From assembly GCA_021818615.1 (NCBI GenBank), contig JAKATT010000136.1, positions 37,981 to 101,980 on the forward strand: a stretch of 64,000 nt of DNA. The letters run 5' to 3'. A model generated the notes under the pieces. It saw only the letters and a list, made by a program, of their open reading frames with translations. It was not told the DNA's origin and searched no databases. Source of the stretch: Actinomycetes bacterium (lineage in GTDB: Bacteria > Actinomycetota > Acidimicrobiia > Acidimicrobiales > Bog-793). The position numbers and the translations under genes are program-made. Shown here in pieces: positions 6,671 to 60,459 of this stretch; within the stretch, counting starts at the first letter, position 1; the number at the start of each line of letters is the position of its first letter.

Positions 6671-6703
6671 TGGACGAGGTTATCCACCACCTAGGCTTGG
6701 GGC

Positions 6704-33651: not shown

Positions 33652-33725
33652 CGGGGAGTAGCGCAGCTTGGCAGCGCGCCTGCTTTGGGAGCAGGAGGCC
33701 GCGGGTTCGAATCCCGCCTCCCCGA
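33652..33725 (+). tRNA. tRNA-Pro (anticodon TGG)
   Basis: 74-nt cloverleaf. Acceptor CGGGGAG/CTCCCCG; D arm GCGC-AGCTTGGCA-GCGC; anticodon arm CCTGC-TTTGGGA-GCAGG; T arm GCGGG-TTCGAAT-CCCGC; discriminator A. No encoded CCA. Confidence 0.9.
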
Positions 33726-33779
33726 CACAGGGCTAGCAACTGTTCCCTGAGATCACTATATATGTGATCGAACGCGTGT

Positions 33780-34396: not shown

Positions 34397-35817
34397 GTGC
34401 TGGTGCACCAGGCGTACCGGTTCGAGCTTGGCCCCGACAACGCCCAGCGCTCGGGCCTGGCGAGCCACGCCGGCGCCTCCCGGTTCGTCTACAACTGGGG
34501 CCTGGCCCTGGTCAAAGAGCACGTGGCCGCCCACAAGGCCCTGGTGGCCCTGGCGCTGCGCCAGGGGGCCAACGTTGGGCAAGCCGAGGCCTGGGCCACC
34601 GAGGTGACAGGGCCGGTCCCGTGGTCGTTGCCGGCGCTCAGGAGGCAGTGGAACCGGCAAAAGCACGACGTGGCCCCCTGGTGGGCCGAGAACTCCAAGG
34701 AGGCCTACAGCTCGGGCCTCGACGCCCTAGCCCGGGGCTTGAAGGCCTTCTTCGGTTCCCGTTCAGGCGGGCGCAAGGACCGGGCTGTCGGCTTCCCCAA
34801 GTTCAAGAACAAGGGCTCGCGGGCCAGCTTCCGGGTGACAACTGGCAGCTTCGGCGTGGTGGACGACCGCCACGTGCGCCTGCCCCGCATAGGCGTGCTC
34901 CGCACCAAGGAACCCACTGCCAAACTGGCGAGGAAGCTCGTCGACGCCAGTGCCAGGGTGCTCTCGGCCACGGTGTCAGAACGCGCCGGGCGCTGGTATG
35001 CGAGCTTTACTGAGAGCTGGACCGCCTCGAGCCCGAGGTGCCGGCCGGCGCCCCAGTTGGCGTAGACCTCGGGGCAAAGCACCTGGCCGTGCTCTCGACC
35101 GGCGAGGAGGTCGACAGCCCCAAGCACCCCTCCCGCTACGCCCGGCGCATGGCCCGGCTCCAACGCCAGTGCTCGCGCCGGCAGGGGCCAGCCAAGGGGC
35201 ACAGGCCTTCAGGGCGCTGGCGGCGCTCCAAGGCCAAGCTGGCCAAAGCCCACGCCAAGGTGGCCAATGCTCGGGCGGACAAGCTCCACAAGTTGACCAC
35301 CCGCCTGGCCAAAAGCCACGGAGCAGTCGTAGTCGAGGACCTAAATGTCGCCGGCATGACCACCAGTGCCAAGGGATCGGGCCACTGGCGGGGCAAGGCG
35401 GGGCTCAACCGGGCCTTGGCCGATGCCTCCCCGGCCGGGCTGCGCCGCCAGCTTGCCTACAAGACCACCTGGTATGGCAGCCGGCTCGTGGTCGCCGACA
35501 GGTGGTTCCCCTCTTCCAAGACGTGCTCGGGCTGTGGGACGGCAAAAGCCAAGCTGTCCCTGTCCGAGCGCGTGTTTTGTTGTGAGCACTGCGGCTTGGT
35601 CATCGACCGGGACCACAACGCCGCTGCCAACCTGGCGGCCCTGGTGGCTGCCATAGGTACCGCCAGTGGGGCGGGAACCGGCCGGGGAAAGACCGGCCTA
35701 CGCACAGGGAGAGGAGAGGTCACAGGCTACGGCCAGTGCTCCTCGGTGAACTGTGAAGACGGCGCCGGACAACCGGGCAAGACCGCCACCGCCGCCGGGC
35801 AACCGACGGCTGCTTGA
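34397..35817 (+). pseudogene. tnpB: TnpB (RuvC-like RNA-guided nuclease) split by a single frameshift near 35012-35014
   Basis: ORF1 from GTG 34397: VLVHQAYRFELGPDN..FPKFKNKG..RWYASFT. ORF2 frame: ELDRLEPEVPAGAPVGVDLG (D), VVVEDLN (E), CSGCG..CCEHCG zinc finger, DRDHNAAANL (D). The frames join if one base is restored after ACT at 35009-35011. Confidence 0.85.
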
Positions 35818-44630: not shown

Positions 44631-44981
44631 GTGAAGATCCTCGTCATCTTGAACGACCCACCGTATGGGACCGAGCGCTCCTACAACGGGCTTCGTCTCG
44701 CGGGCGCCCTCGCCAAGCGCGAGGGCGTCGAGCTGAAGGTGTTCTTGTTCGGCGACGCCGTCGGCTGCGCGCTCGCCAAGCATAAGCTGCCCGACGGCTA
44801 CTACCACCTCGATCGGATGGTGGCTTCCGTCGTTCGCCACGGCGGCCAGATCGGCTGCTGTGGCACGTGCATGGACGCCCGTGCCTTCACCGACGACAAG
44901 CTCGTCGAGGGCGCCCGGCGGTCGAGCCTCGAGGACGCGACCGAGTGGACGATCTGGGCCGACAAGGTCGTGAGCTTTTGA
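44631..44981 (+). CDS. DsrE/TusD-like sulfur-relay family protein
   Basis: AAGGAG 6 nt before GTG 44631. VKILVILNDPPYGTERSYNGLRLA..VFLFGDAV..IGCCGTCMDARA. Confidence 0.7.
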   Translation: MKILVILNDPPYGTERSYNGLRLAGALAKREGVELKVFLFGDAVGCALAKHKLPDGYYHLDRMVASVVRHGGQIGCCGTCMDARAFTDDKLVEGARRSSLEDATEWTIWADKVVSF

Positions 44982-45105: not shown

Positions 45106-46326
45106 GTGACCGGGCGCGTGCGGGTAGTCATCGTCGGAGGTTCCTTCGGCGGCCTCACCACCGCCTACGAGCTACGCCGCCAACTCTCACCCGAGCGGGC
45201 GGAGATCACCCTCGTCGCCAAGGAGGAGCGCTTCACCTTCGTCCCCTCGCTCACCTGGGTGGTGACGGGGTCGCGCACCCTCCCCCAGATCTCCTTCGGC
45301 CTCGCCAGGCCGCTCGCCGCCAAGCAGGTCCACTTCGCCCACGGGACCGTGACCGGCATCGACACCGAGGCCAAGGTGCTGACGACGACGAGCGGCGAGC
45401 ACCACTACGACTTCCTCGTCGTGGCCACCGGACACCGCAGCGCCAACGAGGCCGTCGAGGGCCTCGGGCCCTTCGACGGGCCGGGGCACTCGCCCATGTC
45501 CCCTCCCGAGGCCGAGGAGCTCGCCATAGCGGTTCGTGCTCTGCTCGCCGACCCCGGCCCGATCGTCGTCGGCGCAGCGCCCGGTGCGAGCTGCATCGGA
45601 CCGGCCTACGAGCTCGCCTTCGGGCTCGATCACCTGCTGCGCCGGCACAAGCTGCGCCACCTCGTGCCGATGAGCTTCGTCACCCCCGAGCCCTACCTGG
45701 GCCACATGGGCATGGGCGGCGCCGGCAAGATCCGCCAGCTCCTCGAAGGCGAGCTCGAGGAGCGCGACATCTCCTACCGAACCTCCGCGGCGGTGACCAA
45801 GATCACCGCCGACGCCGTGGATGTGGCGGGGGAGAGGTCGATCCCCTCGGTGCTCTCGATCGTCATCCCGCCACTCGCCGGGGTCGAGGCGGTCGCCACG
45901 AGCCCAGGGCTCGCCAACCCCAAGGGCTTCATCGCCGTCGACGCCCACTACCGTCACCGGAGTGCAGTGGGCGTCTACGCAGTCGGGGTGGCCGTTGCGC
46001 TTCCACCCGTCGGCGAGACCCCGGTGCCGGTCAACTTCCCGAAGACCGGCCACATGACCGAGCAGATGGCACAGATCGCCGCCTCCGACATCGCAACCCG
46101 GATAGCTGGAGCAAAGCCTCGCAGCTTCGAGCTGTCCGCCCGCTGCGTGCTCGACATGGGCAACAGCGGCGCCTACCTGGCGGTCGATCCCGTCCGCCCG
46201 CCGCGAGACAAGATCCCGACCGTGTCCGAGGGACCCCAGTGGCTGCTCGCCAAGCGGGTCTTCGAACAAGCCTACCTCTGGCACGCCAAGCACGGCCGGC
46301 GGATGCCGACCGCGATCGGGTGGTGA
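45106..46326 (+). CDS. Sulfide:quinone oxidoreductase-like FAD-dependent oxidoreductase
   Basis: VVIVGGSFGGLTTA (FAD); PGASCIGPAYELAF and ARCVLDMGNSGA (positions of the SQR redox cysteines); FPKTGHMTEQ. NDH-2 is less likely, as there is no second dinucleotide motif. Confidence 0.7.
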   Translation: MTGRVRVVIVGGSFGGLTTAYELRRQLSPERAEITLVAKEERFTFVPSLTWVVTGSRTLPQISFGLARPLAAKQVHFAHGTVTGIDTEAKVLTTTSGEHHYDFLVVATGHRSANEAVEGLGPFDGPGHSPMSPPEAEELAIAVRALLADPGPIVVGAAPGASCIGPAYELAFGLDHLLRRHKLRHLVPMSFVTPEPYLGHMGMGGAGKIRQLLEGELEERDISYRTSAAVTKITADAVDVAGERSIPSVLSIVIPPLAGVEAVATSPGLANPKGFIAVDAHYRHRSAVGVYAVGVAVALPPVGETPVPVNFPKTGHMTEQMAQIAASDIATRIAGAKPRSFELSARCVLDMGNSGAYLAVDPVRPPRDKIPTVSEGPQWLLAKRVFEQAYLWHAKHGRRMPTAIGW

Positions 46327-47653: not shown

Positions 47654-48979
47654 TCAGATCCGCGCCAGGGTCAGGGGCACCATGACCAGGCCGAAGCCGA
47701 CGACGCCGAGGCACAGAGCCGTGGCGGTGACACGACGGGCGCCGTGCATCCGGTGCTCCTCGGCGAGGGCCCGCCTCTCCAGCGCCAGCAGGAACCCCAG
47801 CACGATTGGCAGCAGGAGGGCGTTCATGACCATGACGTCCGTGACCAAGCCGACGAGGTCGACGCTCAGGAGCACCATGACTGCACCGGCGACGTGCGCT
47901 GCGCTGTATGCGATGTAGAACTTCGCCGTCTTGGCGCTGGGCTTCTCGTTGAGCGTGTGGGTCCAGCCCGAGACCTCTGCGAGCCCGAAGGCGCCCGCGA
48001 GGGAGGCGACCAAGGCGGCCACGAGAGCCGCACCGAGCATGGCGCCACCGAGGAGGATCCTCGCCCCGGCGACCCCGAGGAACGGCAGGAGCGCCGAGGA
48101 CATCTCTCCCACGGTCTCGAGGGAGGCGCCGGGATGATGCAAGCCGACCGTGGCAGCAAAGGTGACGACAGTGGCGATCATGACGAGCTGGGTCAGGACC
48201 GCCCCGGTGGCGGTGTCTCGTCGCGCGCTGCGGATATCTCGCGCCCCCAGCCCTTTGTCGATCACCGCACCCTGCTGGTAGAAGATCATCCACGGCATGA
48301 TCACGGCCCCGACGTTGGCGGCGAGCAGCTCCACGTACGAAGCGCGCTCGAGCGGCAGGTGACCCAAGCCTGCACCGAGGGACGGGAGGCTCGGGTGGGC
48401 GAGGATCATGGCCGGGATGAAGACCAGCTCCATCAGCCCGAGCACCACCCCGGCGCGCTCGGCCCGGCGATAGCTGCCAGTGAGGGCGATGCCGATGAGG
48501 AAGGCGGCGGCGAGCGGCACGGTGAGGACCCGGGAGACGCCGAAGAGCTCCCCGACGCCCGCCACGGCGGCGAGCTCGGTGAGGAGCGCTCCGACCGCCG
48601 ATGCGAAGAGCGTCGTCGCGGAGAGCCATGCCCAGCCCGGCCCGAAGCGCTCCCGGATCAGAGCGCCGTGGCCTTTGCCGGTGTGGATGCCGAGCCGGAC
48701 GGTCATCTCCTGGACGAAGTAGAGGACCGGGACGAGCACGAGCTGGGGTAGGAGCATTCGGTAGCCCCAGCGAGCTCCGGACTGAGCCGCCGTGATCAAG
48801 CTCCCGGCGTCCGTGTCGGCCAACATCACCAAGAGGCCCGGGCCCCACACGACCATGAGCCCTGCGAGCAGCAAGCGCCGTCTGCGGCGCGGCAACCCGG
48901 CGAGGGGACGGGGGAGTGTTTCGGTGGCTGCTGTCGGACCAACGACTCCGATACGGCCAGGCATGCGCCACCGCCCCAT
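47654..48979 (-). CDS. NRAMP-family metal transporter with non-canonical TM1 motif
   Basis: LLVMLADTDAGSLITAAQSGARWGY..YFVQEMTVRLG..AVIMPWMIFYQQ. Eleven or more hydrophobic segments. Begins 3 nt after the DUF3105 stop. Confidence 0.8.
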   Translation of the reverse strand: MGRWRMPGRIGVVGPTAATETLPRPLAGLPRRRRRLLLAGLMVVWGPGLLVMLADTDAGSLITAAQSGARWGYRMLLPQLVLVPVLYFVQEMTVRLGIHTGKGHGALIRERFGPGWAWLSATTLFASAVGALLTELAAVAGVGELFGVSRVLTVPLAAAFLIGIALTGSYRRAERAGVVLGLMELVFIPAMILAHPSLPSLGAGLGHLPLERASYVELLAANVGAVIMPWMIFYQQGAVIDKGLGARDIRSARRDTATGAVLTQLVMIATVVTFAATVGLHHPGASLETVGEMSSALLPFLGVAGARILLGGAMLGAALVAALVASLAGAFGLAEVSGWTHTLNEKPSAKTAKFYIAYSAAHVAGAVMVLLSVDLVGLVTDVMVMNALLLPIVLGFLLALERRALAEEHRMHGARRVTATALCLGVVGFGLVMVPLTLARI

Positions 48980-48982
48980 CCG

Positions 48983-49852
48983 CTACGGTTGAAGCGGGGT
49001 GCCGACGCCTCCTGCGCAAGGACCACCGAGCTCGGGCGTGTAGCGCTGGCTCGCCCGGAAGGTGTCGACGAACCGCTGCAGCCTTGGGTCGTTCGGCGAG
49101 TTGACCCGCAGCTGGAATCCCCACGAGGAGATGACGATTGGCGAGGCCAGACCGGGGAAGGGGCTCAGATCGACGTAGCGCGACCCGGAGTGGTCCACGA
49201 CGCTCTGTCGCGACTCGAAGGAACGCAACTCGGCTACTTCGGCGGGTGGAAGCGATGGTTGGTAGGTGATCCAGACGGCGCCGTGCTCGAGGTCATGGAC
49301 GGCACGCTCGTTCGGCACCGGGTTGTCGTAGACCCCGCAGTTCATCCACACCGCGTTGTGGTCGCCGCCGACCGGCGGGATGACGGCGTAGCTGACGGGA
49401 CCGGAGACGTGGGTGTGCCGAAGTGCGCGGACTGCGGGGCCATTGTGGCTGTCGGCCGGCCAGCCGGTGGTGTCATAGGCGACAACTCCCGGGATGCCCG
49501 AGGTGTTCGGCACTTCGAGCGCGGCCGGCTGCACGTCGGGAGTCCCGCCTCCAACTCCTGGCGGCATGGTCTCGTCGCCCGTCCGGGTCCCCGAACCGCC
49601 CGAGACAAGCAAGACCACGATCAGCACGAGCACGAGGATCGTGGCGACGGCGCCCCCACCCCACCAGGCGACGCGTCGGCGGCGCCTTCGCGCCTCCTCG
49701 GCGGCGCGCTGCCCGGCGAGCTCGGCCTGACGCCCGCGGCGGATCTGAGCCTTGGTCGGGCGGCGCGCAGTCGGCGGTGCCATGCGGCTGGAGCCCGGAC
49801 GGCGAGCGTGCGGCTCGCTGCGCTGCTTCGGAGTCGTCGCTTGTCGGCTCAT
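48983..49852 (-). CDS. DUF3105 domain membrane-anchored protein
   Basis: Basic N-terminus plus TM (GGAVATILVLVLIVVLLV), then YAVIPPVGGDHNAVW..AVHDLEHGAVWITYQP. An alternative duplicated start lies at 49882. Confidence 0.75.
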   Translation of the reverse strand: MSRQATTPKQRSEPHARRPGSSRMAPPTARRPTKAQIRRGRQAELAGQRAAEEARRRRRRVAWWGGGAVATILVLVLIVVLLVSGGSGTRTGDETMPPGVGGGTPDVQPAALEVPNTSGIPGVVAYDTTGWPADSHNGPAVRALRHTHVSGPVSYAVIPPVGGDHNAVWMNCGVYDNPVPNERAVHDLEHGAVWITYQPSLPPAEVAELRSFESRQSVVDHSGSRYVDLSPFPGLASPIVISSWGFQLRVNSPNDPRLQRFVDTFRASQRYTPELGGPCAGGVGTPLQP

Positions 49853-49896
49853 CTGTAACCTCTCAATCGCTTGTCGGCTCATCTGCGACCTCTCGC
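49837..49896. repeat. 30-bp tandem duplication (26/30 identical) spanning the TorD stop and the DUF3105 RBS/start
   Basis: TCGCTTGTCGGCTCATCTGTAACCTCTCAA / TCGCTTGTCGGCTCATCTGCGACCTCTCGC. Each copy carries GAGAGGT-N5-ATGAGCCGACAAGCG in gene sense. Confidence 0.85.
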
Positions 49897-50522
49897 GGGT
49901 TCTCCCTGCGGCGCAGGTCTGCCTCGACGAGCGACAGCGCGCAGGACACAAGGAGCCGCGGCATCTCGCCGGTGTGCTTTGCCTCCAGTGCCGCCGCCAG
50001 GCGCGGCAGCCACGCGACGAGATGGGCGAGCATCGCTTCGACCCGGCGGGCCCGTTCTGGACTGGCAGGACGACCGGAGGCCACCGCCACGAAGGCGAGC
50101 TCCACGCCGACATGGTCCGGCGCCTGGATGAGTGAGCCCCCCGGACCGCGCCGGCGCCGGTCCCACGAGAGCTCCTCTGCGTCGAGCAGCGCGAGGACAT
50201 CGAAGGTGGACCGACCCCAGAGCAGCCCGTCGTCGAGGTAGACGGAGGCATAGGACGGAACGTGCCGAGCGGGGACCGGCGGCCCGAAGCAGGCGATGTG
50301 GTCCGCCGCCGCCCGCGCCCGCTCGGTCGCGGTCGCGGCGGCGAGCTTCGTGATCGTGCTGATCCATACGTCGCGGTCCTCGCACACGCGGGCGGTGGCC
50401 TCGATGAGAGAGTCCAGCTCCGGCAGCGAGTCACGGCTCACGGCGGCGGGGCCGTCAAGAAAGGCGTGAGCCAACAGGTCATAGCTGGCGGTGAAGACGT
50501 CAATGGCCTGGGCAGTGAGCAT
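49863..50522 (-). CDS. TorD/DmsD/NarJ-family redox-enzyme maturation chaperone
   Basis: MLTAQAIDVFTASYDLLAHAFL..ACFGPPVP..SLIQAPDHVGVELAFV (E/QPxDH motif). GGAGAGGA upstream. Starts 3 nt after the catalytic gene stop. The upstream 291 codons of the ORF are rejected. Confidence 0.75.
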   Translation of the reverse strand: MLTAQAIDVFTASYDLLAHAFLDGPAAVSRDSLPELDSLIEATARVCEDRDVWISTITKLAAATATERARAAADHIACFGPPVPARHVPSYASVYLDDGLLWGRSTFDVLALLDAEELSWDRRRRGPGGSLIQAPDHVGVELAFVAVASGRPASPERARRVEAMLAHLVAWLPRLAAALEAKHTGEMPRLLVSCALSLVEADLRRRENPREVADEPTSD

Positions 50523-50524
50523 CG

Positions 50525-53500
50525 TCAAATCCTCTCCACGGCAACTCGCGTCTCGAAGTAGGCCTGGCCGCCGGTGACCGCGTCCATGCACCCGACCGTC
50601 CACCCGTCGGCACCGGCGAGGGAGGTGTCGAGCCGGATGACCGAGTTGAGCCGCACCGCAGTCCCCCGGGTGGCGTCGCCGCCGACCGCACTGCCGTCGA
50701 TCGTCGTGCTCGCAGCCCCGGATTGCCAGTGCCCGTAGCCGTGGGGGAAGGCGACGACGCCCGGTCGCACGCCGGGGAGCAGCCGCAGGCGGCCGACGGG
50801 TGCCCGCTCGCGGGGCAGCGTCGCGGAGTAGACACGCACGAGGTCTCCCGCTTCGAACCCGCGGCGGGCGGCGTCGCTCGGGCACATGTCGATGAACCCC
50901 TCCGGCATGAGCTCGGTGAGCCAGGGATCGACGATGCACTGGCTGTGGCTGAGGATCGTCGACTTGTGGGTGCTGAGCACGAAGGGGAAGCGCGAGGCGG
51001 GATCGAGCTGCTCGAAGCTCCTCCCTGCCAGGTCGGTCATCGGCGCGAAACGGGCGGTGCCGCAGAAGCGCTCGCCGCTGAGCGAGTTGCGGGTCGTCGC
51101 CACGTCGGGGTTGTAGAGCTGGCAGGGGAGCCCGCCCTGTCCGTAGCGGTAGGTCATCCACGCCGGGCCGGTGGCCGGGTTCGCTGGAAGCCTTACCGCC
51201 GACAGGAACGACGCCCGCACCTCGGCAGGGCTGATCTGGTTGGTGGCACGGGCGTAGTGCTCCAAGCCGGTGTCGAGCACGAGGTTCTGGACGATCCTGC
51301 CCAGGCGGGAACTGCTGCCCGTGCTCGGTAGGTACGCGACCTCGTAGTCCTCGAAGCGCCCGCCACGCGCCAGCACGTAGGCGACCTTCGGCCACTCGGA
51401 GCTTCTGATCGCGCGGCGGCGGGTGGCAATCAGCGGCGCGACTGCGGCAAGCTCGGCCCTGCTCGCGTTTGGGACGGGTCCCAGGTTGTGCAGAGCTCCG
51501 TCACGCCAGGCCTGGAACGTCGGGTCGTAGGCGACGTTGGCCACCATCTTCAGGTAGTAGTCCTCACGGGTGTCGAGGGAACCCCCCTCGGCGAAGGCGT
51601 GCTCGCCGAAGCCCGGCAGGCCGAGCGCTTTGGCGACGTCGATGAGGAACTGCTCCATGCACATCGGGTAGCCGCTGGCTGTGTGCCCGGTGAGGGGCTC
51701 GATCACGGGCTGGCGGACGCCCTGGGCCTTGGTCGGGACGACGGGCCAGACGCCCGGGAACTCCCACGACTCGAGGAAGGTCGTGTCCGGCACGACGTAG
51801 TCTGCGAAGACGGCAGTCTCCGACATCACGATGTCGGTGGCGATGAAAAGCGGCACCCTGTCGAGGTCGGTGATGAGCCGCTGGAAGGGGAGGGCGGGGT
51901 CGTCGCAGCCGCCGATCGCTGGCGCGCTCCAGGCCGGGTTGGCGGCATGTGACAGGACGATCTTCGCCCCGTACGGGTAGCCCTCGCGGATCCCGGCGAA
52001 CATCTCCGGCCACTGCCCGCCGCCGAAAGGGAACCAGGGCCGCCGCGCCGGGTAGGGATTGACGCCGGCCTTCACTTTGGCGGCGTACTCGCCGGAGGTC
52101 TCGTAAGCGACGCCGCTACGCGAGATCGGGACGCCGGCAGGGACGTTGGCGGGCTGGCCCGGCCAGGACCCGAGCGCGTACGGAGCCCCGGAGCTCCCTC
52201 CGGCGTAGTCCGCCGTCCCGCCGCCGACCACGTAACCGCCCATCCAATCGAGGCTGCCGACGAGGAAGTTGAGCGTCATGACAGCCCGGCAGGCGTAGAA
52301 GCCGTTCGTGTGCATGGCGGGACCGCGCCCGTAGTCGGCCACCGCCTGGCGGCCGTAGCTGGTGAACTCGGCCGCCAAAGTGGCGATCAGCTCCGGGGGG
52401 ACCCCCGCCTGGGTGGCGTACTGCTCGAGGCTGAGCGCGCGGGCCTCGCCGTAGAGGAGCTGGAACCCGGTAGCGCACCTGACGCCGTTAACCACGGTTG
52501 TGTTGGTGTCGAGCGCGCCGGCCGGCCAGAGCTCACCGGATCGTGCGCCGGTGGCGGGCACGGGCACCCTCGTCGAAGGGTCGATCACGACGCCCGCCTG
52601 CCCGGAGCCGGAGGCAAGCCCCATGGAGCTTCCACCGCCACCTCCCATCTTCTCTGGGGAGAGCCCCGCCTCGGCGGGCGTGAGGAACGATCCGTAGCGG
52701 GGATGCTGCGGGTCGGAGACGACGAGCCAGGTGGCATTGGTGAAGCTCGGCATGCCCGCCTTCGCCGCCGCCTCCTGGCTCGGGCACGACAGGTAGGCGG
52801 CGTCGTAGGCGGCCTGCTCGATGATCGAGCGGATCATCCCCATGGCGAGGGCGCCGTCGCCGCCCGGGCGGACGTAGACGCAGCGATCGGCGTACATCGA
52901 CGAGTTGTTCGCCCGGACGTCGACGACTACGAAACGTAGGGATCTGGAAGCAGACGCCTCGGCGACCTTGCGCCCGAGCGCCTGCATCGGGAACCCTCCC
53001 GTCGTAGGGTTCAGCCCGAAGAAGATCACGTACTGGGCGTTGGCGAGATCCGGCTTGAGCGGGTCCGTCATCCCGTCGAGCGAGAGCATCGTCGCCTTCA
53101 TGCGGGGGAGGTCGCAGACGGCGTCGGCCGCTTCGAGGTTGACCGTCCCGAACGAGGACGCGAAACGTGAGAGGAGATCCGTCTGGCCGTTCTCGGCCAT
53201 TCCGTAGAAGACGACGAGGCCGTTCGTCTCCGGGCCGAGACCTGGGTCGGCCGGGTCGATCGGCCGGTAGCGCCCGCGACCATGGTCGTAGAGACCGGCG
53301 AAGCCCTCGACCTGACGGCGCTCTTCCCCCGCCACCGCCGAGAAGAGCGTCCCGCCGGCGACGACCTCGTCGACGAGCTGCTCCCAAGAGACGGCCTCGA
53401 AACGCCCCGAGCCCCGCGGCCCGCTCCGCTTGAGGGGAAGGGTCAGCCGGTAGGGGTCGTAGACGGTCTGGCGGCCCGCTTGCCCCCGGTTGCAGAGCGA

Positions 53501-55081
53501 GTGCGGAGTCGCCCACACCGCCGCCGAGGCGGCAGGCGTGGCATACCGGGCGTGCGGCTCGGTGCTGGCGGGGTGGTAGGGATTCCCGTCCAACTTCTGA
53601 AGGACGCCCCCGAAGACCTCGGCGGCGAGGCCACAGTCGCTCCCGCACTGCTTGCAGACGCTGTAGATGGTGCTCACGCCGGTGAGGGTCGCCGGGCGGT
53701 CCGGGTAGACGAAGGTGCCCCTGCGATGGAAGAGGTCGCCCACCCATGGCGCCGCACCCCAGCTGGCGGCGGCAACGCCGCCGCTCACCATCCCGGTACG
53801 GGCGAGGAAAGCCCTGCGGCCAAAACGTGCCCGGCCGTCCGCCGCCGGCTCGAGGCGATGAGATGACGGAGCGGAAGGAGTGCCCACCGGTGCAGGCAAG
53901 AGCGTGCCGGCAGGCTCCGTGTCCCGAGCAGCCGCCTCGCGCCAGGGCAACAGCCAGGAGAAGAAGAGGAACAGCAAGACGGCGATGGCGAAGACCCCGA
54001 GCACCGTCTGGACGGAGTCGAAGCCGGTGAGCGGCACCGACATGTGGACGATGCTCGAGGAGACCTTCGACTCCATTTGCCCGCCGAGCACGACGTTGTA
54101 GCGCATCGCGTAGACCCCGACCACGACGCAGAGGGCGATGGCGGCTCCCCCGAGCACGGAACGCCTGACCGGCCGGACGAGGAATAGGAGCAGCGGCAGC
54201 ACGATCCCCACTCCGAGCTGGAGGCCGAGGTAGCTGAAGGCGTGCGGTCCGTGCAGGAAGACCGAGCTCACGCCCTCGCTCACCGGTCCCTGCGTGTAGG
54301 CGGAGACGCCACTCGTGACGAGGTCGACGACGTCCAAGAAGCCGTCGAGGGCGAGGAAGCCCACCAGCCAGAAAAGGAGCGTCCGGGTCAGCTCACGGTC
54401 GCACTGATCGCGGTAGAAGCGTCCCGTGAGCCCGTAGACGAGATACATGAAGGCCATCCCGGAGACGACCGCCGAGACGATGAAGAGCACGGGCATGAGC
54501 GCCGTCGACCAGATCGCCCGTGCCTTCACCGCCCCGAAGACGAAACCGATGTAGCCGTGGAACAAGAAGGCGAGCAGGATGCCGATCGCCGAGAGGCCGA
54601 CGAGCACCTTGGCGTCTCGCCGCTCGGCCCGCTCGCTCAGGTCGCTGCTCCCGAGAGCGAGCAGCGAGGAGAGCCGCGCCCGCCAACCGGTCCCGCCGGC
54701 GCGCATGACGTTCTTGCGCCGAAAGGCGAAGTAGGTCTCGACGGTCATGAGCACGACGTAGCTCAGCCAGATCAAGGTGAAATCGCCGAGCGGCGACCAA
54801 GGGATGTGCGGGCGGGTGAAGAGCTCGAAGGCGTTGACGGGTTGGCGGGCGTCGGCGAGCACGGTCACGGGGGCGGCGAGAAGGAGGGAGAAGCTGACGA
54901 TGAGGGCGAGAGGGGCGAGCCTTGCGAGGCGATGCACCTTGAAAACGTGGCTGAGCGAGGCGACAACGAACGAGCCGGCGACGAGGCCGGAGATGAACGG
55001 GTAGGTGGCGATGAGCAGTCCCCAGTAGACGTTCTCGAGGGCACCTCCTCGAAGGCCCGGGTCGAGCGCGAGCATTCTCAT
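50525..55081 (-). CDS. Fused NrfD-type membrane anchor + internal Tat motif + bis-MGD molybdopterin oxidoreductase catalytic subunit (TtrC-TtrA-like fusion), 1518 aa
   Basis: ATG 55081 (GGAGGGG upstream). Residues 1-380: nine hydrophobic segments of NrfD/PsrC type. Residues 421-447: GRRAFLARTGMVSGGVAAASWGAAPW. Then FS0 motif CKQCGSDC..C, GNPYHP, ALAMGMIRSI, and ~1090 residues to ..AVERI. No stop anywhere in the frame. Confidence 0.8.
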   Translation of the reverse strand: MRMLALDPGLRGGALENVYWGLLIATYPFISGLVAGSFVVASLSHVFKVHRLARLAPLALIVSFSLLLAAPVTVLADARQPVNAFELFTRPHIPWSPLGDFTLIWLSYVVLMTVETYFAFRRKNVMRAGGTGWRARLSSLLALGSSDLSERAERRDAKVLVGLSAIGILLAFLFHGYIGFVFGAVKARAIWSTALMPVLFIVSAVVSGMAFMYLVYGLTGRFYRDQCDRELTRTLLFWLVGFLALDGFLDVVDLVTSGVSAYTQGPVSEGVSSVFLHGPHAFSYLGLQLGVGIVLPLLLFLVRPVRRSVLGGAAIALCVVVGVYAMRYNVVLGGQMESKVSSSIVHMSVPLTGFDSVQTVLGVFAIAVLLFLFFSWLLPWREAAARDTEPAGTLLPAPVGTPSAPSSHRLEPAADGRARFGRRAFLARTGMVSGGVAAASWGAAPWVGDLFHRRGTFVYPDRPATLTGVSTIYSVCKQCGSDCGLAAEVFGGVLQKLDGNPYHPASTEPHARYATPAASAAVWATPHSLCNRGQAGRQTVYDPYRLTLPLKRSGPRGSGRFEAVSWEQLVDEVVAGGTLFSAVAGEERRQVEGFAGLYDHGRGRYRPIDPADPGLGPETNGLVVFYGMAENGQTDLLSRFASSFGTVNLEAADAVCDLPRMKATMLSLDGMTDPLKPDLANAQYVIFFGLNPTTGGFPMQALGRKVAEASASRSLRFVVVDVRANNSSMYADRCVYVRPGGDGALAMGMIRSIIEQAAYDAAYLSCPSQEAAAKAGMPSFTNATWLVVSDPQHPRYGSFLTPAEAGLSPEKMGGGGGSSMGLASGSGQAGVVIDPSTRVPVPATGARSGELWPAGALDTNTTVVNGVRCATGFQLLYGEARALSLEQYATQAGVPPELIATLAAEFTSYGRQAVADYGRGPAMHTNGFYACRAVMTLNFLVGSLDWMGGYVVGGGTADYAGGSSGAPYALGSWPGQPANVPAGVPISRSGVAYETSGEYAAKVKAGVNPYPARRPWFPFGGGQWPEMFAGIREGYPYGAKIVLSHAANPAWSAPAIGGCDDPALPFQRLITDLDRVPLFIATDIVMSETAVFADYVVPDTTFLESWEFPGVWPVVPTKAQGVRQPVIEPLTGHTASGYPMCMEQFLIDVAKALGLPGFGEHAFAEGGSLDTREDYYLKMVANVAYDPTFQAWRDGALHNLGPVPNASRAELAAVAPLIATRRRAIRSSEWPKVAYVLARGGRFEDYEVAYLPSTGSSSRLGRIVQNLVLDTGLEHYARATNQISPAEVRASFLSAVRLPANPATGPAWMTYRYGQGGLPCQLYNPDVATTRNSLSGERFCGTARFAPMTDLAGRSFEQLDPASRFPFVLSTHKSTILSHSQCIVDPWLTELMPEGFIDMCPSDAARRGFEAGDLVRVYSATLPRERAPVGRLRLLPGVRPGVVAFPHGYGHWQSGAASTTIDGSAVGGDATRGTAVRLNSVIRLDTSLAGADGWTVGCMDAVTGGQAYFETRVAVERI

Positions 55082-55086
55082 GTCGC

Positions 55087-56157
55087 TCACTCCCCTCCGA
55101 GGGGTGTCTGCAGGACCATCTGGCCGCTGAGCTCGGCGTACTGATCGGTGTTGGTGCCGACGGCGTAGGGGTAAACGGTGTCGAAGGCGGTGGCGGCGCT
55201 CACGAGCTCGCCGTTCAGGTTGATGTAGAAGATCTGCGGATCCGTCCCCTCCTCGGGAAGGAGCGTGATCGTCGGGTACTGGGCAAGGAGCTGGGAGGCG
55301 GCGCTCTGCGGGTCGTTGAGGTCGCCGAAGACCCGCGCCCTTCCGACGCACGAGGTGACGCAGGCAGGGAGGAGTCCCCGGTCGAGGCGTTGCACGCAGA
55401 AAGTGCACTTGTCCGCCGTCTCCTGCACGCTGTGGAAATATCGGGCGTCGTACGGGCAGGCCTGGATGCAGATCCCACAGCCGATGCACTTCGTGTAGTC
55501 GACAAGGACCGGGCCATCCCCGCGCTTGAAGGTGGCCTGCACCGGGCAAACGATGACGCAGGGCGGGTTGTCGCAGTGGTTGCAAAGTCGGGGGAGCGCC
55601 CACCGCTTCACCGTCGGCGTGAAGCGCCCGTCTTCGGTGACGATGGAGCCCGACGGATCCCGGACCATCGTGCCGAGCTCGACCACCTCCACCCAGGTGC
55701 GGTAGTTGCCCGGCGGCACGTTGTTCTCGCTCTTGCAGGCGACCACGCAGGCCTGGCAACCGATGCAGCGGCGCAGGTCGATGACCATCCCCCAGTGGTG
55801 CGATGCGGCGGACTCGTCGGGGAAGGCCTCGTAGTAGGCGGGCTGGTCGCGCGAGTTGAGGATGGTGGGCACCCAGGCGCCCGGCCGGCTCCAACCGTCT
55901 GGCCGGGCGTTCAGCTCGTCGACCGTCCAGCTCGCCCAGCGGGGCTTGAGCGCGAGCACCTTGGAGAGGGGAAGGCGGCCCTTCAGGCGGGTCGGAAGGA
56001 GCGCTGCGGCGGTCCGTCCGGCCCGCAAGCGGGTGACGACGCCCCCGGACGCGGCAGCGACCGTCATCCCGAGCGCAGCTGTGAGAGCCTGGCGGCGCGT
56101 GAACGCGACCCGCTCGCCGGTTGCTCGGGAGTCGTCCGGTCTCGATCTCGCCCCCAT
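55087..56157 (-). CDS. Tat-targeted 4Fe-4S ferredoxin subunit (TtrB/PsrB/NrfC-like)
   Basis: Tat signal FTRRQALTAALGMTVAAASGG. Cys clusters: CIGCQACVVACKSEN, CNHCDNPPCVIVCP, CIGCGICIQACPYDA, CTFCVQR..ACVTSC. About 90-residue insert between the signal and the first cluster. Confidence 0.9.
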   Translation of the reverse strand: MGARSRPDDSRATGERVAFTRRQALTAALGMTVAAASGGVVTRLRAGRTAAALLPTRLKGRLPLSKVLALKPRWASWTVDELNARPDGWSRPGAWVPTILNSRDQPAYYEAFPDESAASHHWGMVIDLRRCIGCQACVVACKSENNVPPGNYRTWVEVVELGTMVRDPSGSIVTEDGRFTPTVKRWALPRLCNHCDNPPCVIVCPVQATFKRGDGPVLVDYTKCIGCGICIQACPYDARYFHSVQETADKCTFCVQRLDRGLLPACVTSCVGRARVFGDLNDPQSAASQLLAQYPTITLLPEEGTDPQIFYINLNGELVSAATAFDTVYPYAVGTNTDQYAELSGQMVLQTPLGGE

Positions 56158-56238
56158 CGGCTCTCATGCTCCGCCGTCCCGGCAGTCCCCACATCGGCGA
56201 AGCCGCTTACATCGGCCGGTAATCCCGCCTAGGCGATC

Positions 56239-56250
56239 TCGCGTACGCGA
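56239..56250. promoter_or_regulatory. Perfect 12-bp palindrome TCGCGTACGCGA in the divergent ttrB-like / response-regulator intergenic region
   Basis: Read directly. The 140-bp divergent promoter region makes it a candidate dimeric regulator site. Confidence 0.3.
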
Positions 56251-56297
56251 CAGTGCGACGCCGTCGGCCCGGATGGCGATGCACAATGTGAGCAGCC

Positions 56298-56927
56298 ATG
56301 TCGCCCCGCCCGATCCGCGTCATTGTCGTCGACGACCACCAGGTCGTGCGGGAGGGGACACGGCGGATCCTCGAGGCGGCGGGTTTCGAAGTTGTCGCCG
56401 AGGCTGCCACGGCCGCCGAGGCCGTCACGGCGGTCGCCGCCGGTTCCCCTGACGTCGTCCTCGCCGACGTCAGGCTGCCGGGCATGACCGGCATCGATCT
56501 CACCGCCCTCTTGAAGGACAGGCATCCGGCGATCAAGGTGCTGATCCTCTCGTCGTACGCGAACCCGGCTTACGCTCGAGCGGCGCTCAAGGCGGGTGCT
56601 GCCGGCTATCTGGTCAAGACCGCCTCCGACGACGAGCTCGTGGGCGCCGTAAGGTCGGCGTCGCTCGGTACGGGGGTGCTCGACTCGGGCGTCTTGTCGG
56701 AGCTCATCTCGGAGACGGGCGGCGACTTCCAGATGCTCACGGGCCGGGAGCGCGACGTGGTCGAGCTCGTCGTCGCAGGGCTCCCGAACAAGGGGATCGC
56801 CGCCCGCCTCGAGGTGAGCCCGCGGACGGTCGATGCCCACCTTGCGCACCTGTTCACCAAGCTCTCCGTCTCGTCACGGGCCGAGCTCGTGGCGTGGGCA
56901 GCCCGCCATGGGATGTTGGGGGAGTGA
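56298..56927 (+). CDS. NarL/LuxR-family response regulator
   Basis: IRVIVVDDHQVVREG..DVVLADVRLPGMTG receiver domain. LuxR HTH: LTGRERDVVELVVAGLPNKGIAARLEVSPRTVDAHLAHLFTKL. Confidence 0.9.
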   Translation: MSPRPIRVIVVDDHQVVREGTRRILEAAGFEVVAEAATAAEAVTAVAAGSPDVVLADVRLPGMTGIDLTALLKDRHPAIKVLILSSYANPAYARAALKAGAAGYLVKTASDDELVGAVRSASLGTGVLDSGVLSELISETGGDFQMLTGRERDVVELVVAGLPNKGIAARLEVSPRTVDAHLAHLFTKLSVSSRAELVAWAARHGMLGE

Positions 56928-58288
56928 CCGGAAAGGTGCCCTCGGAGCGGCCCGGGAAGGGACTCGGCGCCTATCTGCCGCCGATCCACGACCGGCGCTT
57001 CTGGTTCACCCAAGGGCTGGTTCTCGTGGTGTCCATCGCCCATGCGGTCGTCCACATAGCGGTCGGCGGGTTGCCCGACGTGCTCGTCCTGATCCTGTAC
57101 ACGTTCCCGGTGATCTATGCGGCTCTCGAGTTCGGCTTCCGGGGCTCGGTCGCGACGACGGCGCTCATAGTGGTGCTCTCGCTGCCCTTCGTCATCCACG
57201 ACGCCCTGTCGGGCGTCGGCTCGGATTTCGTAGGGCACCTCGTCGAGCTCGCCATCCTCGTCGTGGTCGCTCCGGTCGTGGGGCGGGTGGTCGAATCGGA
57301 GCGAGCCGCCCGCCGGGCGCACGAGGTGGCGGAGATCCGGTACCGGGCGCTCTTCGAGGCGAGCGGCGTGCCAGCCCTTGTCCTCGACGAACAGGGATGT
57401 ATCCAGGAGGCCAACCCTGCCGCCGCATCGTTGCTGCAGGGCGAGCTGCAGGGCAGGCACCTGAGCCAGGTGCTCGGCATGGCGGCCGCGGACGCGATCC
57501 TCGGAGGCGACCCGCCGCAACGACTCGACGTCTCCTCGGGCCTGGCGTTGCGGCCCATAGTCTCGGCTGCCGTGGGCGAGGCGGGTGAGCGCCTCGCCCA
57601 GGTCCTGTTCCAGGACGTCACGGAGGAGACCGCCGGCAGCCGGAGGACTCGGGCCTTCGCCCTTGCCGTCCTCGTCGCCCAAGAAGACGAGCGCCGGCGT
57701 ATCGCTCAGGAGCTCCACGACGAAGCGTTACAGCTCGTGGTCGAGCTCCGTCGCCGCGTCGAGCGAGTCGTGCGGTCCAGCCCACCCGACTGCGCCGGAG
57801 GCGAAGAGCTGCTCGCGGCGCGTTCGCTCGCCGACGCCGTGATCGAGGAGCTCAGGACCGTCGCCGTCCGTCTCCGCCCGCCCGACCTCGCCGATCTCGG
57901 TCTCACAGCCTCACTCGAGCGGCTCGTTGCCGAGGCCCGCCGCCGGGGCACTCCGGCCGAGATCGAGGTCGAAGGCCGCGAGCCCGCCCTCCCGCCGGAC
58001 TTCGCTCTCTCGCTCTACCGGGTAGCCCAGGAGGCGCTCACGAATGCTGAGCACCACGCCCGGGCCCAGCACGTCGGCTTGCGGCTCGACTTCTCGGACT
58101 CGAGCGCTGTCCTTGTCGTCGAGGACGACGGGGTCGGGTTCGTGGTGGGCGATGCCGCGGCGAGCGAGGCGAACGCCCATCTGGGACTGCTCGGGATGCG
58201 CGAGCGGTTGCAGCTCGTTGGCGGGACCCTCGAGATCACCTCTGCGGTCGGCGAGGGAACGACCGTTGCCGCGGCCGTGCGCCTCTAG
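56894..58288 (+). CDS. Membrane sensor histidine kinase (HisKA_3/NarX-type) with PAS-like domain
   Basis: Four N-terminal hydrophobic segments; PAS-like YRALFEASGVPALVLDEQGCIQEANPAA; H-box EDERRRIAQELHDEALQ; HATPase VEDDGVGF..GLLGMRERL. GTG 56924 (GTGA with the regulator stop) is an alternative start. Confidence 0.85.
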   Translation: MGSPPWDVGGVTGKVPSERPGKGLGAYLPPIHDRRFWFTQGLVLVVSIAHAVVHIAVGGLPDVLVLILYTFPVIYAALEFGFRGSVATTALIVVLSLPFVIHDALSGVGSDFVGHLVELAILVVVAPVVGRVVESERAARRAHEVAEIRYRALFEASGVPALVLDEQGCIQEANPAAASLLQGELQGRHLSQVLGMAAADAILGGDPPQRLDVSSGLALRPIVSAAVGEAGERLAQVLFQDVTEETAGSRRTRAFALAVLVAQEDERRRIAQELHDEALQLVVELRRRVERVVRSSPPDCAGGEELLAARSLADAVIEELRTVAVRLRPPDLADLGLTASLERLVAEARRRGTPAEIEVEGREPALPPDFALSLYRVAQEALTNAEHHARAQHVGLRLDFSDSSAVLVVEDDGVGFVVGDAAASEANAHLGLLGMRERLQLVGGTLEITSAVGEGTTVAAAVRL

Positions 58289-58779: not shown

Positions 58780-60459
58780 ATGAATCGTACAGCGAACCAT
58801 ACCCCAGTCAGAGGACGGGCGGCCCGCCCCGGCGGCGAGTTCTTCGCCCGCCCGGCCGGGCCCAACCACCGTCGCTTCGAGGCCCTACGTGCGTACCTGT
58901 GGGAGGGGGCCAGCGGCGAGGAGGCCGCGGCGAGGGCCGGCTACTCGTTGGAGACGCTGCGATCGGTGGTGCGGGACTTCCGCGCCGGCAAGACCGGGTT
59001 CTTCATCGACCCGCGGCCCGGGCCGAGGCGTGCCCCGGCCAAGAACGCGGCGCGTGAGCGCATCATCGAGCTGCGCCGTGCCGGCCACTCGGCCACGGAG
59101 ATCTCCGAGGCGCTTCTCGGCACCTCGACCCCGCTCAACCGCACCGGGGTCGCCGAGGTGCTGGCCGAGGCCGGGTTCCCCCGCCTACCGGTACGACCGC
59201 CCGCCGAGCGTGGCGCCCCCTACCGCTACCACCCCCGCCGGGCCGCCCGCATTGTGTTCGGCGAGCTGGCGCCACGGGCCGAGACCAAGGTTGGCGGGCT
59301 GCTGGCCGTCGTCCCCGAGCTCGTCGCGCTCGACCTGCCCGGCCTCATCAGAGCCGCCGGCTACCCCGGCACATCGGTCATCCCGGCCACGAGCTACCTG
59401 CTGTCGCTGCTCGCCTTGAAGCTGGTCGGGGTCGCTCGGGTCTCCCACGTCGAGGACCTGGCCGCCGATGTCGGAGCCGGGCTGTTCGCCGGGCTGGTGG
59501 CCCTTCCCAAGGCCACCGCGCTCACCACCTACTCCTACCGGCTCGACCACTCCCACCAGGCCGCATTCCTCGCCGCGCTCGGCAAGGCGATGCTCGCAGC
59601 CGACCTCGTCTCGGACGCCTCCGGCGACCTCGACTTGGACTTCCGCGCCATCATGCACTGGGGCGAGGACGTGGTCCTGGAGAAGCACTACGTCCCCCGC
59701 CGCTCCCAGCGCACCCGCTCGGTGCTGAGCTTCTTCGCCCAAGACGGCGCCAGCCAGACCCTCGTGTATGCCAACGCCGACCTCACCAAGGACACCCAGG
59801 CCCGCGAGGTGCTCGTCTTCGCCGAGCTCGACGCCAAAGGCATCAACTTCCTCACCCTCCGCATGCGCTCACCGTCGCTCCTCCGCCACATCGCCTCCCT
59901 GCCCCCATCGGCGTGGCGGACCGTGGCTCTCGATCGCGACGGCAACTACCGCCGCCCGAAAGTCGTCGACGAACAAGTCAGCATCTCCGCCTACCCCGGC
60001 ACCGTGCGCCAGCTCGTCGTCACCGGCCTCGGTCGCGACGCCGCGACGGTCATCATCACCAACGACCGCGTCGCCACCGCCAAGCAGCTCATCGAGCGCT
60101 ACGCCCGGCGGATGAACATCGAGCAGCACTTGGCCGAATCGATCCGCTCGTTCCACCTCGACGCCCTAGCCGGCTCCGTGCCGCTCAACGTCGACCCAGA
60201 CGTCGCGCTATCGGTGCTCGCCGGCGCGGTGCGCGCGTCGTTGCGCCGCCGGCTCACCGGCTACCACCACGCCACCCCAGACACCCTCCAACGCCGGTTC
60301 CTGTCCACAGGAGGCCTCATCGTCGACAACGGTGACTCCGTCCTCGTCCAACTCAAACGGCGCACCTACTCCCCGGTGCTTCGCCAGGCCGACATCCCCG
60401 AGGTCGCAGTCCCCTGGTGGGGGGGACGCACCCTCCGCTTCGAATACGACCGGCGATAG
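58780..60459 (+). CDS. Putative transposase (family not assigned)
   Basis: N-terminal HTH-like (AAARAGYSLETLRSVVRDF, IIELRRAGHSATEISEAL); LDFRAIMHWGEDVVLEKHYVPRRSQRTRSV; IERYARRMNIEQHLAESI. Flanked by other IS debris. Intactness not verifiable by eye. Confidence 0.6.
   Translation: MNRTANHTPVRGRAARPGGEFFARPAGPNHRRFEALRAYLWEGASGEEAAARAGYSLETLRSVVRDFRAGKTGFFIDPRPGPRRAPAKNAARERIIELRRAGHSATEISEALLGTSTPLNRTGVAEVLAEAGFPRLPVRPPAERGAPYRYHPRRAARIVFGELAPRAETKVGGLLAVVPELVALDLPGLIRAAGYPGTSVIPATSYLLSLLALKLVGVARVSHVEDLAADVGAGLFAGLVALPKATALTTYSYRLDHSHQAAFLAALGKAMLAADLVSDASGDLDLDFRAIMHWGEDVVLEKHYVPRRSQRTRSVLSFFAQDGASQTLVYANADLTKDTQAREVLVFAELDAKGINFLTLRMRSPSLLRHIASLPPSAWRTVALDRDGNYRRPKVVDEQVSISAYPGTVRQLVVTGLGRDAATVIITNDRVATAKQLIERYARRMNIEQHLAESIRSFHLDALAGSVPLNVDPDVALSVLAGAVRASLRRRLTGYHHATPDTLQRRFLSTGGLIVDNGDSVLVQLKRRTYSPVLRQADIPEVAVPWWGGRTLRFEYDRR

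Follow-up and report, generated by a model that had tools for sequence, protein, structure and literature searches.

A tetrathionate-reductase-type operon with a fused anchor-catalytic subunit in an uncultured actinobacterium

We analyzed a stretch of 64,000 nucleotides from an Actinomycetes bacterium (contig JAKATT010000136.1 of assembly GCA_021818615.1, positions 37,981 to 101,980; referred to below as the window), which has a G+C content of approximately 69%. The window contains a locus related to the tetrathionate reductase genes ttrBCA, in which the membrane anchor (C) and the molybdenum-containing catalytic subunit (A) are encoded by a single open reading frame (ORF) of 1518 amino acids. 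This fusion, which an earlier sequence-only reading of the locus had touched on in passing, stands out as the most unusual trait here. Taken as a whole, the locus is probably best explained as encoding a membrane-anchored and outward-facing quinol:acceptor oxidoreductase of the Ttr family, with a fused C-A protein that is inserted by the general secretory (Sec) plus the twin-arginine translocation (Tat) pathways, and with an incidental tail of two genes for a DUF3105 protein and an NRAMP-family transporter.

Catalytic subunit and substrate

The catalytic part of the fused ORF comprises approximately 1070–1100 residues, as compared to 1021 residues in TtrA and 758 in PhsA, which bears out the earlier remark that it is of TtrA-like length and longer than the Phs type. 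Ranking of the NCBIfam models placed TtrA first with 590 bits, followed by PhsA (163 bits), DmsA (116 bits), ArrA (57 bits) and NarG (14 bits). Searches with tblastn gave 33% identity to TtrA from annotated plasmids over 94% of the catalytic part, and 24% identity to PhsA, for which the N-terminal 27% alone could be aligned. A neighbor-joining (NJ) tree of 62 sequences (951 columns, 100 bootstraps, PhsA as the outgroup) united the window protein with TtrA of Salmonella and Pseudomonas in a 33-member clade with a bootstrap support of 100/100. Nested within it is a fully supported 16-member clade, which contains the window protein and its relatives from mine drainage. The phylogenetic check proposed in the sequence-only reading thus places the catalytic domain within the TtrA clade.

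The cysteines of the FS0 cluster (C476, C479, C483 and C530 in the numbering of the fusion) and the putative molybdenum ligand C656 align with cysteines of TtrA, PhsA and all clade members; all of these residues are invariant in the catalytic-subunit alignment. A sequence search of the PDB returned no close solved relative, the best matches being FdhA and PsrA at E values of about 1e-15. Membership in the PsrABC/PhsABC group was considered and rejected, based on a PhsA score below the cut-off of 694 bits, an A part of ~1100 rather than ~750 residues, and a nine-helix anchor instead of an eight-helix or cytochrome b anchor. Judged from its sequence, the enzyme is a member of the TtrA/SrdA/alternative-ArrA family, and the fold and electron path of the reductase are secure.

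TtrA, SrdA and the alternative arsenate reductase constitute one catalytically versatile family (PMC10100899), which justifies the earlier decision to leave the substrate open. The most likely reaction is the reduction of tetrathionate to thiosulfate, as suggested by the family placement, the sulfur-gene neighbours and the habitat. Tetrathionate is favoured because the gene context is sulfur-related and because pyrite oxidation yields tetrathionate abiotically (PMC10100899). Several observations weigh against this assignment. None of the three subunits reaches its NCBIfam equivalog cut-off (TtrA 590 vs 1750 bits, TtrB 247 vs 416 bits and TtrC 21.5 vs 314 bits), the identity to characterised TtrA is only 33%, selenate and arsenate reductases also belong to the family, and the closest annotated plasmid homologue (35% identity) is located inside an arsenic island.

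The enzyme might therefore not be a tetrathionate reductase, but instead act on selenate (as SrdBCA), on arsenate (as the alternative archaeal Arr), or on sulfur or polysulfide, or run in reverse as a thiosulfate:quinone oxidoreductase. The low similarity to TtrA and the functional versatility of the family (PMC10100899) are both consistent with such an alternative, as are the homologues from Citrobacter and Enterobacter within an ars island, the B-subunit module that the acidophile clade has of its own, and the kinase without a TtrS-like sensor. However, the neighbouring genes of the window are sulfur-related rather than arsenic- or selenium-related, tetrathionate forms abiotically during pyrite oxidation, and the homologous operon of Sulfobacillus acidophilus is co-expressed with thiosulfate/tetrathionate genes (PMC5114278). 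We regard a substrate other than tetrathionate as rather unlikely.

The plasmid of Citrobacter arsenatis (NZ_CP037863.1; positions 4013-9408 of locus L084) has an arsRDAB/arsC island that contains Ttr-like genes in B-C-A order, with 35% identity to the A part in the window. The cluster is followed by a 193-aa unannotated gene, and plasmids of Citrobacter freundii and Enterobacter ludwigii likewise carry it. This location hints at a non-sulfur substrate for the Citrobacter/Enterobacter plasmid branch.

The fused reading frame

In the closest relative, L001 (81% identical), C and A are separate genes with an ATGA overlap after a GGAGG sequence. The C-A junction in the window contains no stop codon, no start codon and no Shine-Dalgarno sequence, and the frames are continuous. 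The same fused ORF was found in two more assemblies, represented by one ENA contig and one Logan contig, which differ from the window by 0.35% at the nucleotide level. Five of the differences fall inside the fused ORF, of which four are synonymous and one is the conservative replacement A438V. Given these single-nucleotide differences between the contigs, the fusion occurs in no fewer than two strain variants. An assembly artefact was considered and rejected in view of the strain variant with the same fusion. An in-frame GTG in the linker ('APVGTPS') was also considered as an internal start for a separate A subunit and found unlikely, with no Shine-Dalgarno sequence before the GTG and no stop in the C frame.

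The ratios of nonsynonymous to synonymous substitution rates (dN/dS) in comparison with L001 were 0.21 (C part), 0.23 (A part) and 0.18 (B), indicating that both halves of the fusion are under purifying selection. A point against a functional fusion is that it is a singleton in its own clade, since the relatives at 50–81% identity all have separate C and A genes. It could be a recent non-adaptive or even disabling lesion, which would leave the catalytic domain unexported or the reductase inactive. The linker is poorly conserved, and one frame change in this GC-rich segment would have been enough to join the frames. Against such a lesion stand the presence of the fusion in two strain variants whose differences are mostly synonymous, the dN/dS of ~0.2 for both halves, which is similar to that of B, the intact set of cofactor ligands, and a predicted topology that is compatible with export. 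Moreover, proteins of this architecture originated on at least five independent occasions, as described below, and three of the clusters have several members or contigs, which argues for the viability of the fusion. We consider a lesion improbable.

Topology and internal Tat signal

Hydropathy analysis identified nine helices in the anchor part, and loops rich and poor in lysine and arginine alternate along the sequence. The N-terminus of the anchor is predicted to be outside, and its C-terminus together with the motif 'RFGRRAFLAR' in the cytoplasm. This model is weakened by its basis in hydropathy and the positive-inside rule. In agreement with it, TtrC of Salmonella is predicted to have nine helices with the C-terminus at the N-side, whereas PsrC has eight helices with both ends outside (PMC8076601).

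The motif 'RFGRRAFLAR' at residues 419-428 is followed by TGMVSGGVAAASWGAAPWVG and then by the molybdenum-bis(pyranopterin guanine dinucleotide) (Mo-bisPGD) domain. The sequence after the internal twin arginines consists of a weakly hydrophobic stretch, the residues 'AAA/S' and the conserved pattern W-G-x-x-P-W-V-G-D-L-F-H-R-R-G. The Kyte-Doolittle value of the internal signal segment is 0.87, as compared to 1.5–2.8 for helices 1–9, and the segment is followed by D-L-F-H-R-R-G. Low hydrophobicity and following basic residues release a polypeptide from Sec to Tat (PMC5449189), and the internal signal displays both of these hand-over features in its hydropathy and its HRR residues. With the twin-arginine motif directly before the last hydrophobic segment and the cofactor domain C-terminal to it, the pattern of dual Sec/Tat proteins is present.

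The dual Sec/Tat substrates named in PMC5449189 are of the Rieske, MsrQ-MsrP, NapH-NapG and YkuE types, with no NrfD-molybdenum fusion among them. The fused protein shares several traits with actinobacterial Rieske proteins, the MsrQ-MsrP-type protein Sco3746 and the NapH-NapG-type polyferredoxin (PMC5449189): an N-terminal part of several Sec-type helices, a twin-arginine motif within the protein before the last weakly hydrophobic helix with basic residues thereafter, a C-terminal cofactor domain on the outside, and the fusion of proteins that are separate elsewhere. It differs from them in the number of preceding helices, nine or ten as opposed to two to four. Its cargo differs as well, being a Mo-bisPGD/[4Fe-4S] domain of ~120 kDa (estimated from ~1070 residues) instead of a small domain, and requiring in addition a TorD-type chaperone and a separately exported iron-sulfur (FeS) partner. 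Literature searches for TtrC-TtrA fusions, with most subscription journals outside their coverage, returned nothing relevant, and the fused anchor-catalytic architecture with an internal Tat signal appears undescribed.

Recurrence of the fusion

An exhaustive profile-free search of 1.8 billion representative proteins identified five further fused clusters at the 50% identity level, with lengths of 1364–1489 residues and 34–36% identity. Nine or ten helices are located ahead of the molybdenum domain in these clusters, and the twin-arginine motif between the NrfD and molybdenum domains is kept in all except P0037, which has 'TRS' only. Three of the five clusters were found in several assemblies, including a metagenome-assembled genome (MAG) of Gaiellaceae. 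The fused proteins are situated at no fewer than five separate positions in the NJ tree, indicating that at least five other Ttr-family lineages gained the fusion independently.

We tentatively propose, with slightly less than an even chance of being right, that the fused TtrC-TtrA proteins represent a working and undescribed class of dual Sec/Tat proteins. In this class, a nine- or ten-helix anchor would be followed by a retained Tat signal serving as helix 10 or 11, through which a folded ~120 kDa Mo-bisPGD/[4Fe-4S] domain is exported. That TtrC ends in the cytoplasm, in contrast to the eight-helix PsrC, would explain why the fusion arose more than once in the Ttr family.

Other fusions of NrfD-type anchors were observed in addition. 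In P0170, the anchor is fused to a four-cluster FeS subunit with an internal 'LSRRNFL' signal, and P0134 and P0140 are NrfD anchors with unrelated C-terminal domains. It seems that NrfD anchors are fused to partner proteins more widely.

Proposed mechanism

Based on knowledge of the family, electrons would pass from menaquinol at the NrfD-type anchor first via the four [4Fe-4S] clusters of B and then via FS0 to the Cys-ligated Mo-bisPGD. During biogenesis, Sec/YidC would insert the nine helices, such that the C-terminus and the twin-arginine motif stay in the cytoplasm, and the TorD-like protein would have its customary role as a chaperone for maturation and Tat proofreading. Once the cofactors are loaded, the weakly hydrophobic signal would be inserted by Tat as helix 10, and the catalytic domain of ~1070 residues would be exported. 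Signal peptidase may split the anchor and catalytic parts after export at the retained 'AAA/S' residues.

Relatives and comparison with known systems

Of 160 relatives from a scan of species-representative genomes, 80 were kept for comparison. Nearly all relatives with more than 40% identity come from genomes of acid mine drainage or tailings. The mine-drainage relatives comprise MAGs of 'Actinomycetes bacterium', Sulfobacillus, other Bacillota, Acidithiobacillus sulfuriphilus, Acididesulfobacillus and Candidatus Acidulodesulfobacterium. The B-C-A order is present in 53 of the 62 related loci with enough upstream flank, and a TorD-like gene was detected by tblastn directly after A in 24 of 64 loci. 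The B-C-A(-TorD) layout is also found in Halobellus, with TorD after A, and in Azospirillum, Pseudomonas and Citrobacter plasmids. A TorD-type gene at this position is thus standard, and is known as ttrD in S. acidophilus (PMC5114278), so that it cannot be counted as an extension of the operon, as had been suggested from the sequence. SQR-like, DsrE or DsrC genes recur near the ttr loci of the relatives.

A 2014 study had already noted putative tetrathionate reductases (TTRs) of this branch in Sulfobacillus (PMC4378227). The genes of S. acidophilus TPY are arranged as tatA-ttrB-ttrC-ttrA-ttrD(TorD)-tatC, followed by sqr, and are strongly expressed (PMC5114278). The operon in the window is a member of a clade whose loci have already been called putative tetrathionate reductases, and its host is an uncultured high-GC actinobacterium. 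The A subunits of the window and Sulfobacillus belong to one clade and are 53–55% identical, and the two operons share the B-C-A order, the TorD-type 'TtrD' gene after A, an SQR-type gene nearby, and an extended B subunit with a tryptophan-rich module. The operon in the window differs from that of Sulfobacillus in that C and A are one ORF, in the absence of tatA and tatC from the operon, in the divergent LuxR/HisKA_3 pair, in the appended DUF3105 and NRAMP genes, and in its actinobacterial host.

With the TtrRS/TtrBCA system of Salmonella enterica, the locus shares the B-C-A order, a two-component system that is transcribed divergently and includes a LuxR-type regulator, Tat signals on both B and A, a nine-helix NrfD-type anchor, and the Cys-ligated Mo-bisPGD and FS0 cluster, with 33% identity over 94% of A. 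In contrast to Salmonella, the proteins in the window fall below the NCBIfam equivalog cut-offs for TtrA, TtrB, TtrC and TtrR, the kinase is of another type, the regulator gene precedes the kinase gene, B has ~78 extra residues, a TorD-type gene is present, and C and A are fused. SrdBCA of Bacillus selenatarsenatis and the alternative archaeal arsenate reductase belong to the same MopB family as TtrA (PMC10100899) and share the B-C-A operon logic, whereas the gene context in the window is related to sulfur and not to selenium or arsenic.

Variant Ttr-like A loci were observed among the relatives (L009, L050 and L053; L044, L060, L061, L066, L072 and L077), some of which lack upstream B and C genes, and others of which have B directly before A without C. 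One of the A genes without an upstream B or C is the 'orphan' second TTR of Sulfobacillus AMDSBA1. The Ttr family thus has more than one arrangement of its subunits. In the actinobacterial MAG HSP2.bin26, the ttrA homologue is broken after approximately residue 265 by a 1.7-kb insert (L045, positions 2431-4142). This insert is probably an insertion sequence and encodes 465 aa in an opposite-strand ORF.

The FeS subunit

TtrB was the best NCBIfam hit of the FeS subunit, with 247 bits, and all 16 cluster cysteines of B are invariant in 45 homologues. The insert of ~90 residues that the sequence-only reading had placed before the first cluster is present. The match to the TtrB profile begins at residue 115 of B, which corresponds to profile position 37 and leaves ~78 extra residues, and 110 residues separate the twin-arginine motif from the first cluster. 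Across the acidophile clade this distance is 97–131 residues, and it is far shorter in most of the distant relatives in which it was measurable.

The extension contains a tryptophan-rich module of ~45–55 residues, preceded by a variable linker and followed by the first ferredoxin motif, with the pattern P-R-W-A-S-W ... L-N ... D-G-W ... W ... I-x-N ... H-D-x-F and invariant tryptophans. Within the acidophile clade, the module spans actinobacteria, Bacillota, Acidithiobacillus and Campylobacterales, and it is absent from the B subunit of Citrobacter. An AlphaFold2 prediction of the B subunit with 45 sequences gave a predicted local distance difference test score (pLDDT) of 45, at which the module was not placeable.

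The DUF3105 and NRAMP genes

The five genes on the minus strand are separated by gaps of 5, 2, 10 and 3 nt, as read from the sequence, and an alternative in-frame upstream ATG of the DUF3105 gene at position 49882 turns the 10-nt gap into a 20-nt overlap. Inspection of the sequence and domain searches reproduced every detail previously described for this set, including the coordinates, the gene order, the gaps and the alternative start. A promoter/terminator scan, which is weak evidence, detected no terminator-like site between the five genes. The neighbour downstream of the NRAMP gene is a convergent plus-strand gene that ends at position 47418, and the minus-strand unit therefore stops after NRAMP. 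The DUF3105 and NRAMP genes are probably co-transcribed with the operon.

The neighbourhood survey by tblastn did not uphold the view that the two genes are an extension of operons of this kind. DUF3105 was present in none of the 80 other ttr loci and was found only in two contigs from the same organism as the window. NRAMP was present in one of the 80 loci, namely L001, where the gene is 55% identical and is located on the opposite strand ~2.2 kb downstream of the ttr genes, with three unrelated small ORFs in between. Relatives at 70% identity lack both genes.

The DUF3105 gene has two alternative starts because of a 30-bp tandem duplication at the junction with the TorD gene. The stop of TorD comes from copy 1, and copy 2 contributes the ribosome-binding site of DUF3105 and its ATG at position 49852. 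This structure suggests that the junction is a local rearrangement and a recent join.

The DUF3105 protein matches PF11303 with 135.6 bits against a cut-off of 25, and consists of a basic N-terminus, one membrane helix and an extracytoplasmic domain with invariant histidine and cysteine residues. It has more than 2000 homologues at 60–76% identity, many of which are metagenomic. All four of the inspected neighbourhoods of DUF3105 relatives (L086-L088 and the Joint Genome Institute (JGI) contig of P0200) hold copper-homeostasis genes. The neighbours include SCO1/SenC, CopC/CopD, DsbD, redoxins, a CsoR-type repressor with a P-type ATPase, DUF305 and CtaG, which suggests an extracytoplasmic copper-related role for the DUF3105 family. 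An AlphaFold2 model based on 36 sequences reached a mean pLDDT of 61, with values below 50 in the conserved His-rich core. A Foldseek search of the PDB with this model gave nothing significant (best E 0.12), although thioredoxin folds on top of the list provide a weak hint. Literature searches for DUF3105, with the same limits of journal coverage as above, returned nothing relevant.

For the NRAMP protein, a metagenome scan gave 565 relatives, of which 80, with up to 73% identity, were inspected. No Ttr or DUF3105 gene was observed near any of these 80 loci, and a DtxR-like neighbour was present in six of them. The contigs are mostly JGI metagenome accessions, which we take to be from peat and acid-soil samples. 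The protein is a divergent member of the family, for which the MntH model gave 63 bits against a cut-off of 430. The canonical NRAMP motifs are DPGN in helix 1 and MPH in helix 6. At these sites the protein in the window reads 'DAGS' and 'MPW', and its clade (L090-L169) reads 'D(A/V)GS' and 'MPW', such that the metal-binding aspartate and methionine are kept and the asparagine and histidine are replaced.

The spacing of 10 and 3 nt and the NRAMP gene near the ttr genes of L001 leave room for a functional link and weigh against an incidental tail. The two genes could be true accessory parts that are co-transcribed and co-selected with the reductase, for example for the import of Fe2+/Mn2+ or for extracellular metal handling in support of an iron-rich enzyme in metal-laden acid water. 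Their location on the same strand and the lack of a terminator-like site would agree with this, as would the 55%-identical NRAMP gene downstream of ttr in L001 and the dN/dS of 0.47 for NRAMP, with no sign of decay. However, the two genes are virtually missing from the other ttr loci (0/80 and 1/80, the latter on the opposite strand), and the relatives at 70% identity have neither. Close NRAMP relatives have neither Ttr nor DUF3105 beside them (0/80), the DUF3105 relatives are located beside copper genes and not beside Ttr (4/4), and the junction duplication suggests a recent join. We consider an accessory role improbable. We conclude that the DUF3105 and NRAMP genes came to lie beside the operon in this lineage only and are not components of the reductase, and that they would represent a metal-homeostasis-related tail that was joined to the operon by local rearrangement.

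Regulatory genes and flanking regions

The best NCBIfam hits of the response regulator were MctR and MadR. The TtrR model gave 87 bits against a cut-off of 290, no TtrS model was among the NCBIfam hits of the kinase, and the kinase has no large extracytoplasmic sensor domain. The LuxR/HisKA_3 pair is common to the window and its closest relative L001 only, and the relatives at ~70% identity carry OmpR/HisKA pairs in its place. The statement in the sequence-only reading that the locus mirrors ttrRS thus holds for the general layout but not for orthology; on the profile scores and neighbourhoods, the likeness appears to be one of layout. The pair probably controls the expression of the reductase. 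On the twin contig L002, the gene caller sets the start of the kinase at position 56924.

The divergent intergenic region (56158-56297) is 79% identical to the equivalent region of L001. Promoter, repeat and Rfam scans of this region detected no sigma-70-like site, no inverted repeat and no Rfam match, and the Rfam scan of the locus as a whole returned no riboswitch or other RNA.

Beyond the kinase gene there is a transposase ORF, which is split into 252 and 324 aa by an 11-nt indel near window position 59533 in the near-identical ENA contig L002 (positions 4507-6302). Further transposase fragments follow past this ORF. On the other side of the locus, a tRNA-Pro (TGG) gene and a match to the Rfam family 'Transposase-2 RNA' were found at positions 33652-33726 and 35748-35814 of the window. 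Together, the tRNA-Pro gene, the Transposase-2 RNA and the transposases near 58.8–61 kb suggest that the region around the locus is rich in mobile elements.

Table 1. Features of the locus and its flanks, in positions of the window.
Feature	Position	Strand	Description
TtrB-like FeS subunit gene	55087-56157	minus	356 aa; Fer4_11 and related domains; 'FTRRQAL' twin-arginine motif
Tryptophan-rich module in the B extension	55813-55950	minus	~aa 70-115; conserved in the acidophile clade
Fused NrfD/catalytic ORF	50525-55081	minus	1518 aa; NrfD at aa 16-336, then Molybdop_Fe4S4, Molybdopterin, Molydop_binding
TtrC-like NrfD anchor part of the fused ORF	53927-55081	minus	aa 1-385; nine predicted helices, N-out/C-in
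Linker and retained internal Tat signal	53747-53926	minus	aa 386-445; twin arginines of 'RFGRRAFLAR' at aa 422-423 (53813-53818)
TtrA-like Mo-bisPGD catalytic part of the fused ORF	50525-53746	minus	aa 446-1518 and stop; assigned by Pfam, NCBIfam and tree
TorD/NarJ-family maturation chaperone gene ('TtrD' equivalent)	49863-50522	minus	219 aa; Pfam Nitrate_red_del
30-bp tandem duplication at the TorD/DUF3105 junction	49837-49894		1.9 copies, 92% matches; Tandem Repeats Finder
DUF3105 gene	48983-49852	minus	289 aa; Pfam E 1.4e-39
NRAMP-family transporter gene	47654-48979	minus	441 aa; Pfam Nramp E 1.5e-57
Divergent intergenic (promoter) region	56158-56297		140 nt; read from sequence
NarL/LuxR-type response regulator gene	56298-56927	plus	Response_reg and GerE; divergent from the reductase genes
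Sensor histidine kinase gene	56894-58288	plus	DUF4118-like membrane region, PAS, HisKA_3, HATPase_c (Pfam, NCBIfam)
SQR-like flavoprotein gene (context)	45106-46326	plus	Pyr_redox_2; convergent with the operon
DsrE gene (context)	~44631-44981		with cysteine desulfurase and helix-turn-helix (HTH)-rhodanese genes beyond the SQR-like gene
IS1380/DDE-type transposase ORF (context)	58780-60459	plus	559 aa; regulator-side flank

Implications

The operon itself is ordinary and provides one more indication that actinobacteria of mine drainage can respire tetrathionate or a related compound. The link to DUF3105 and NRAMP, which made the locus look new, is not a conserved association, and the tryptophan-rich module of B is a marker of the acidophile clade. 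The interest of the locus rests on the fusion, in which an anchor of nine or ten helices is joined to a very large molybdoenzyme with the Tat signal kept, both here and in at least five other lineages. This architecture raises questions about the limits of size and complexity for a tethered Tat cargo, about how TorD reads an internal signal, and about whether the product is processed back to two subunits. If the proposed class of dual Sec/Tat proteins is real and the signal stays uncleaved, the catalytic subunit would be covalently tethered to the membrane in cells that have no outer membrane.

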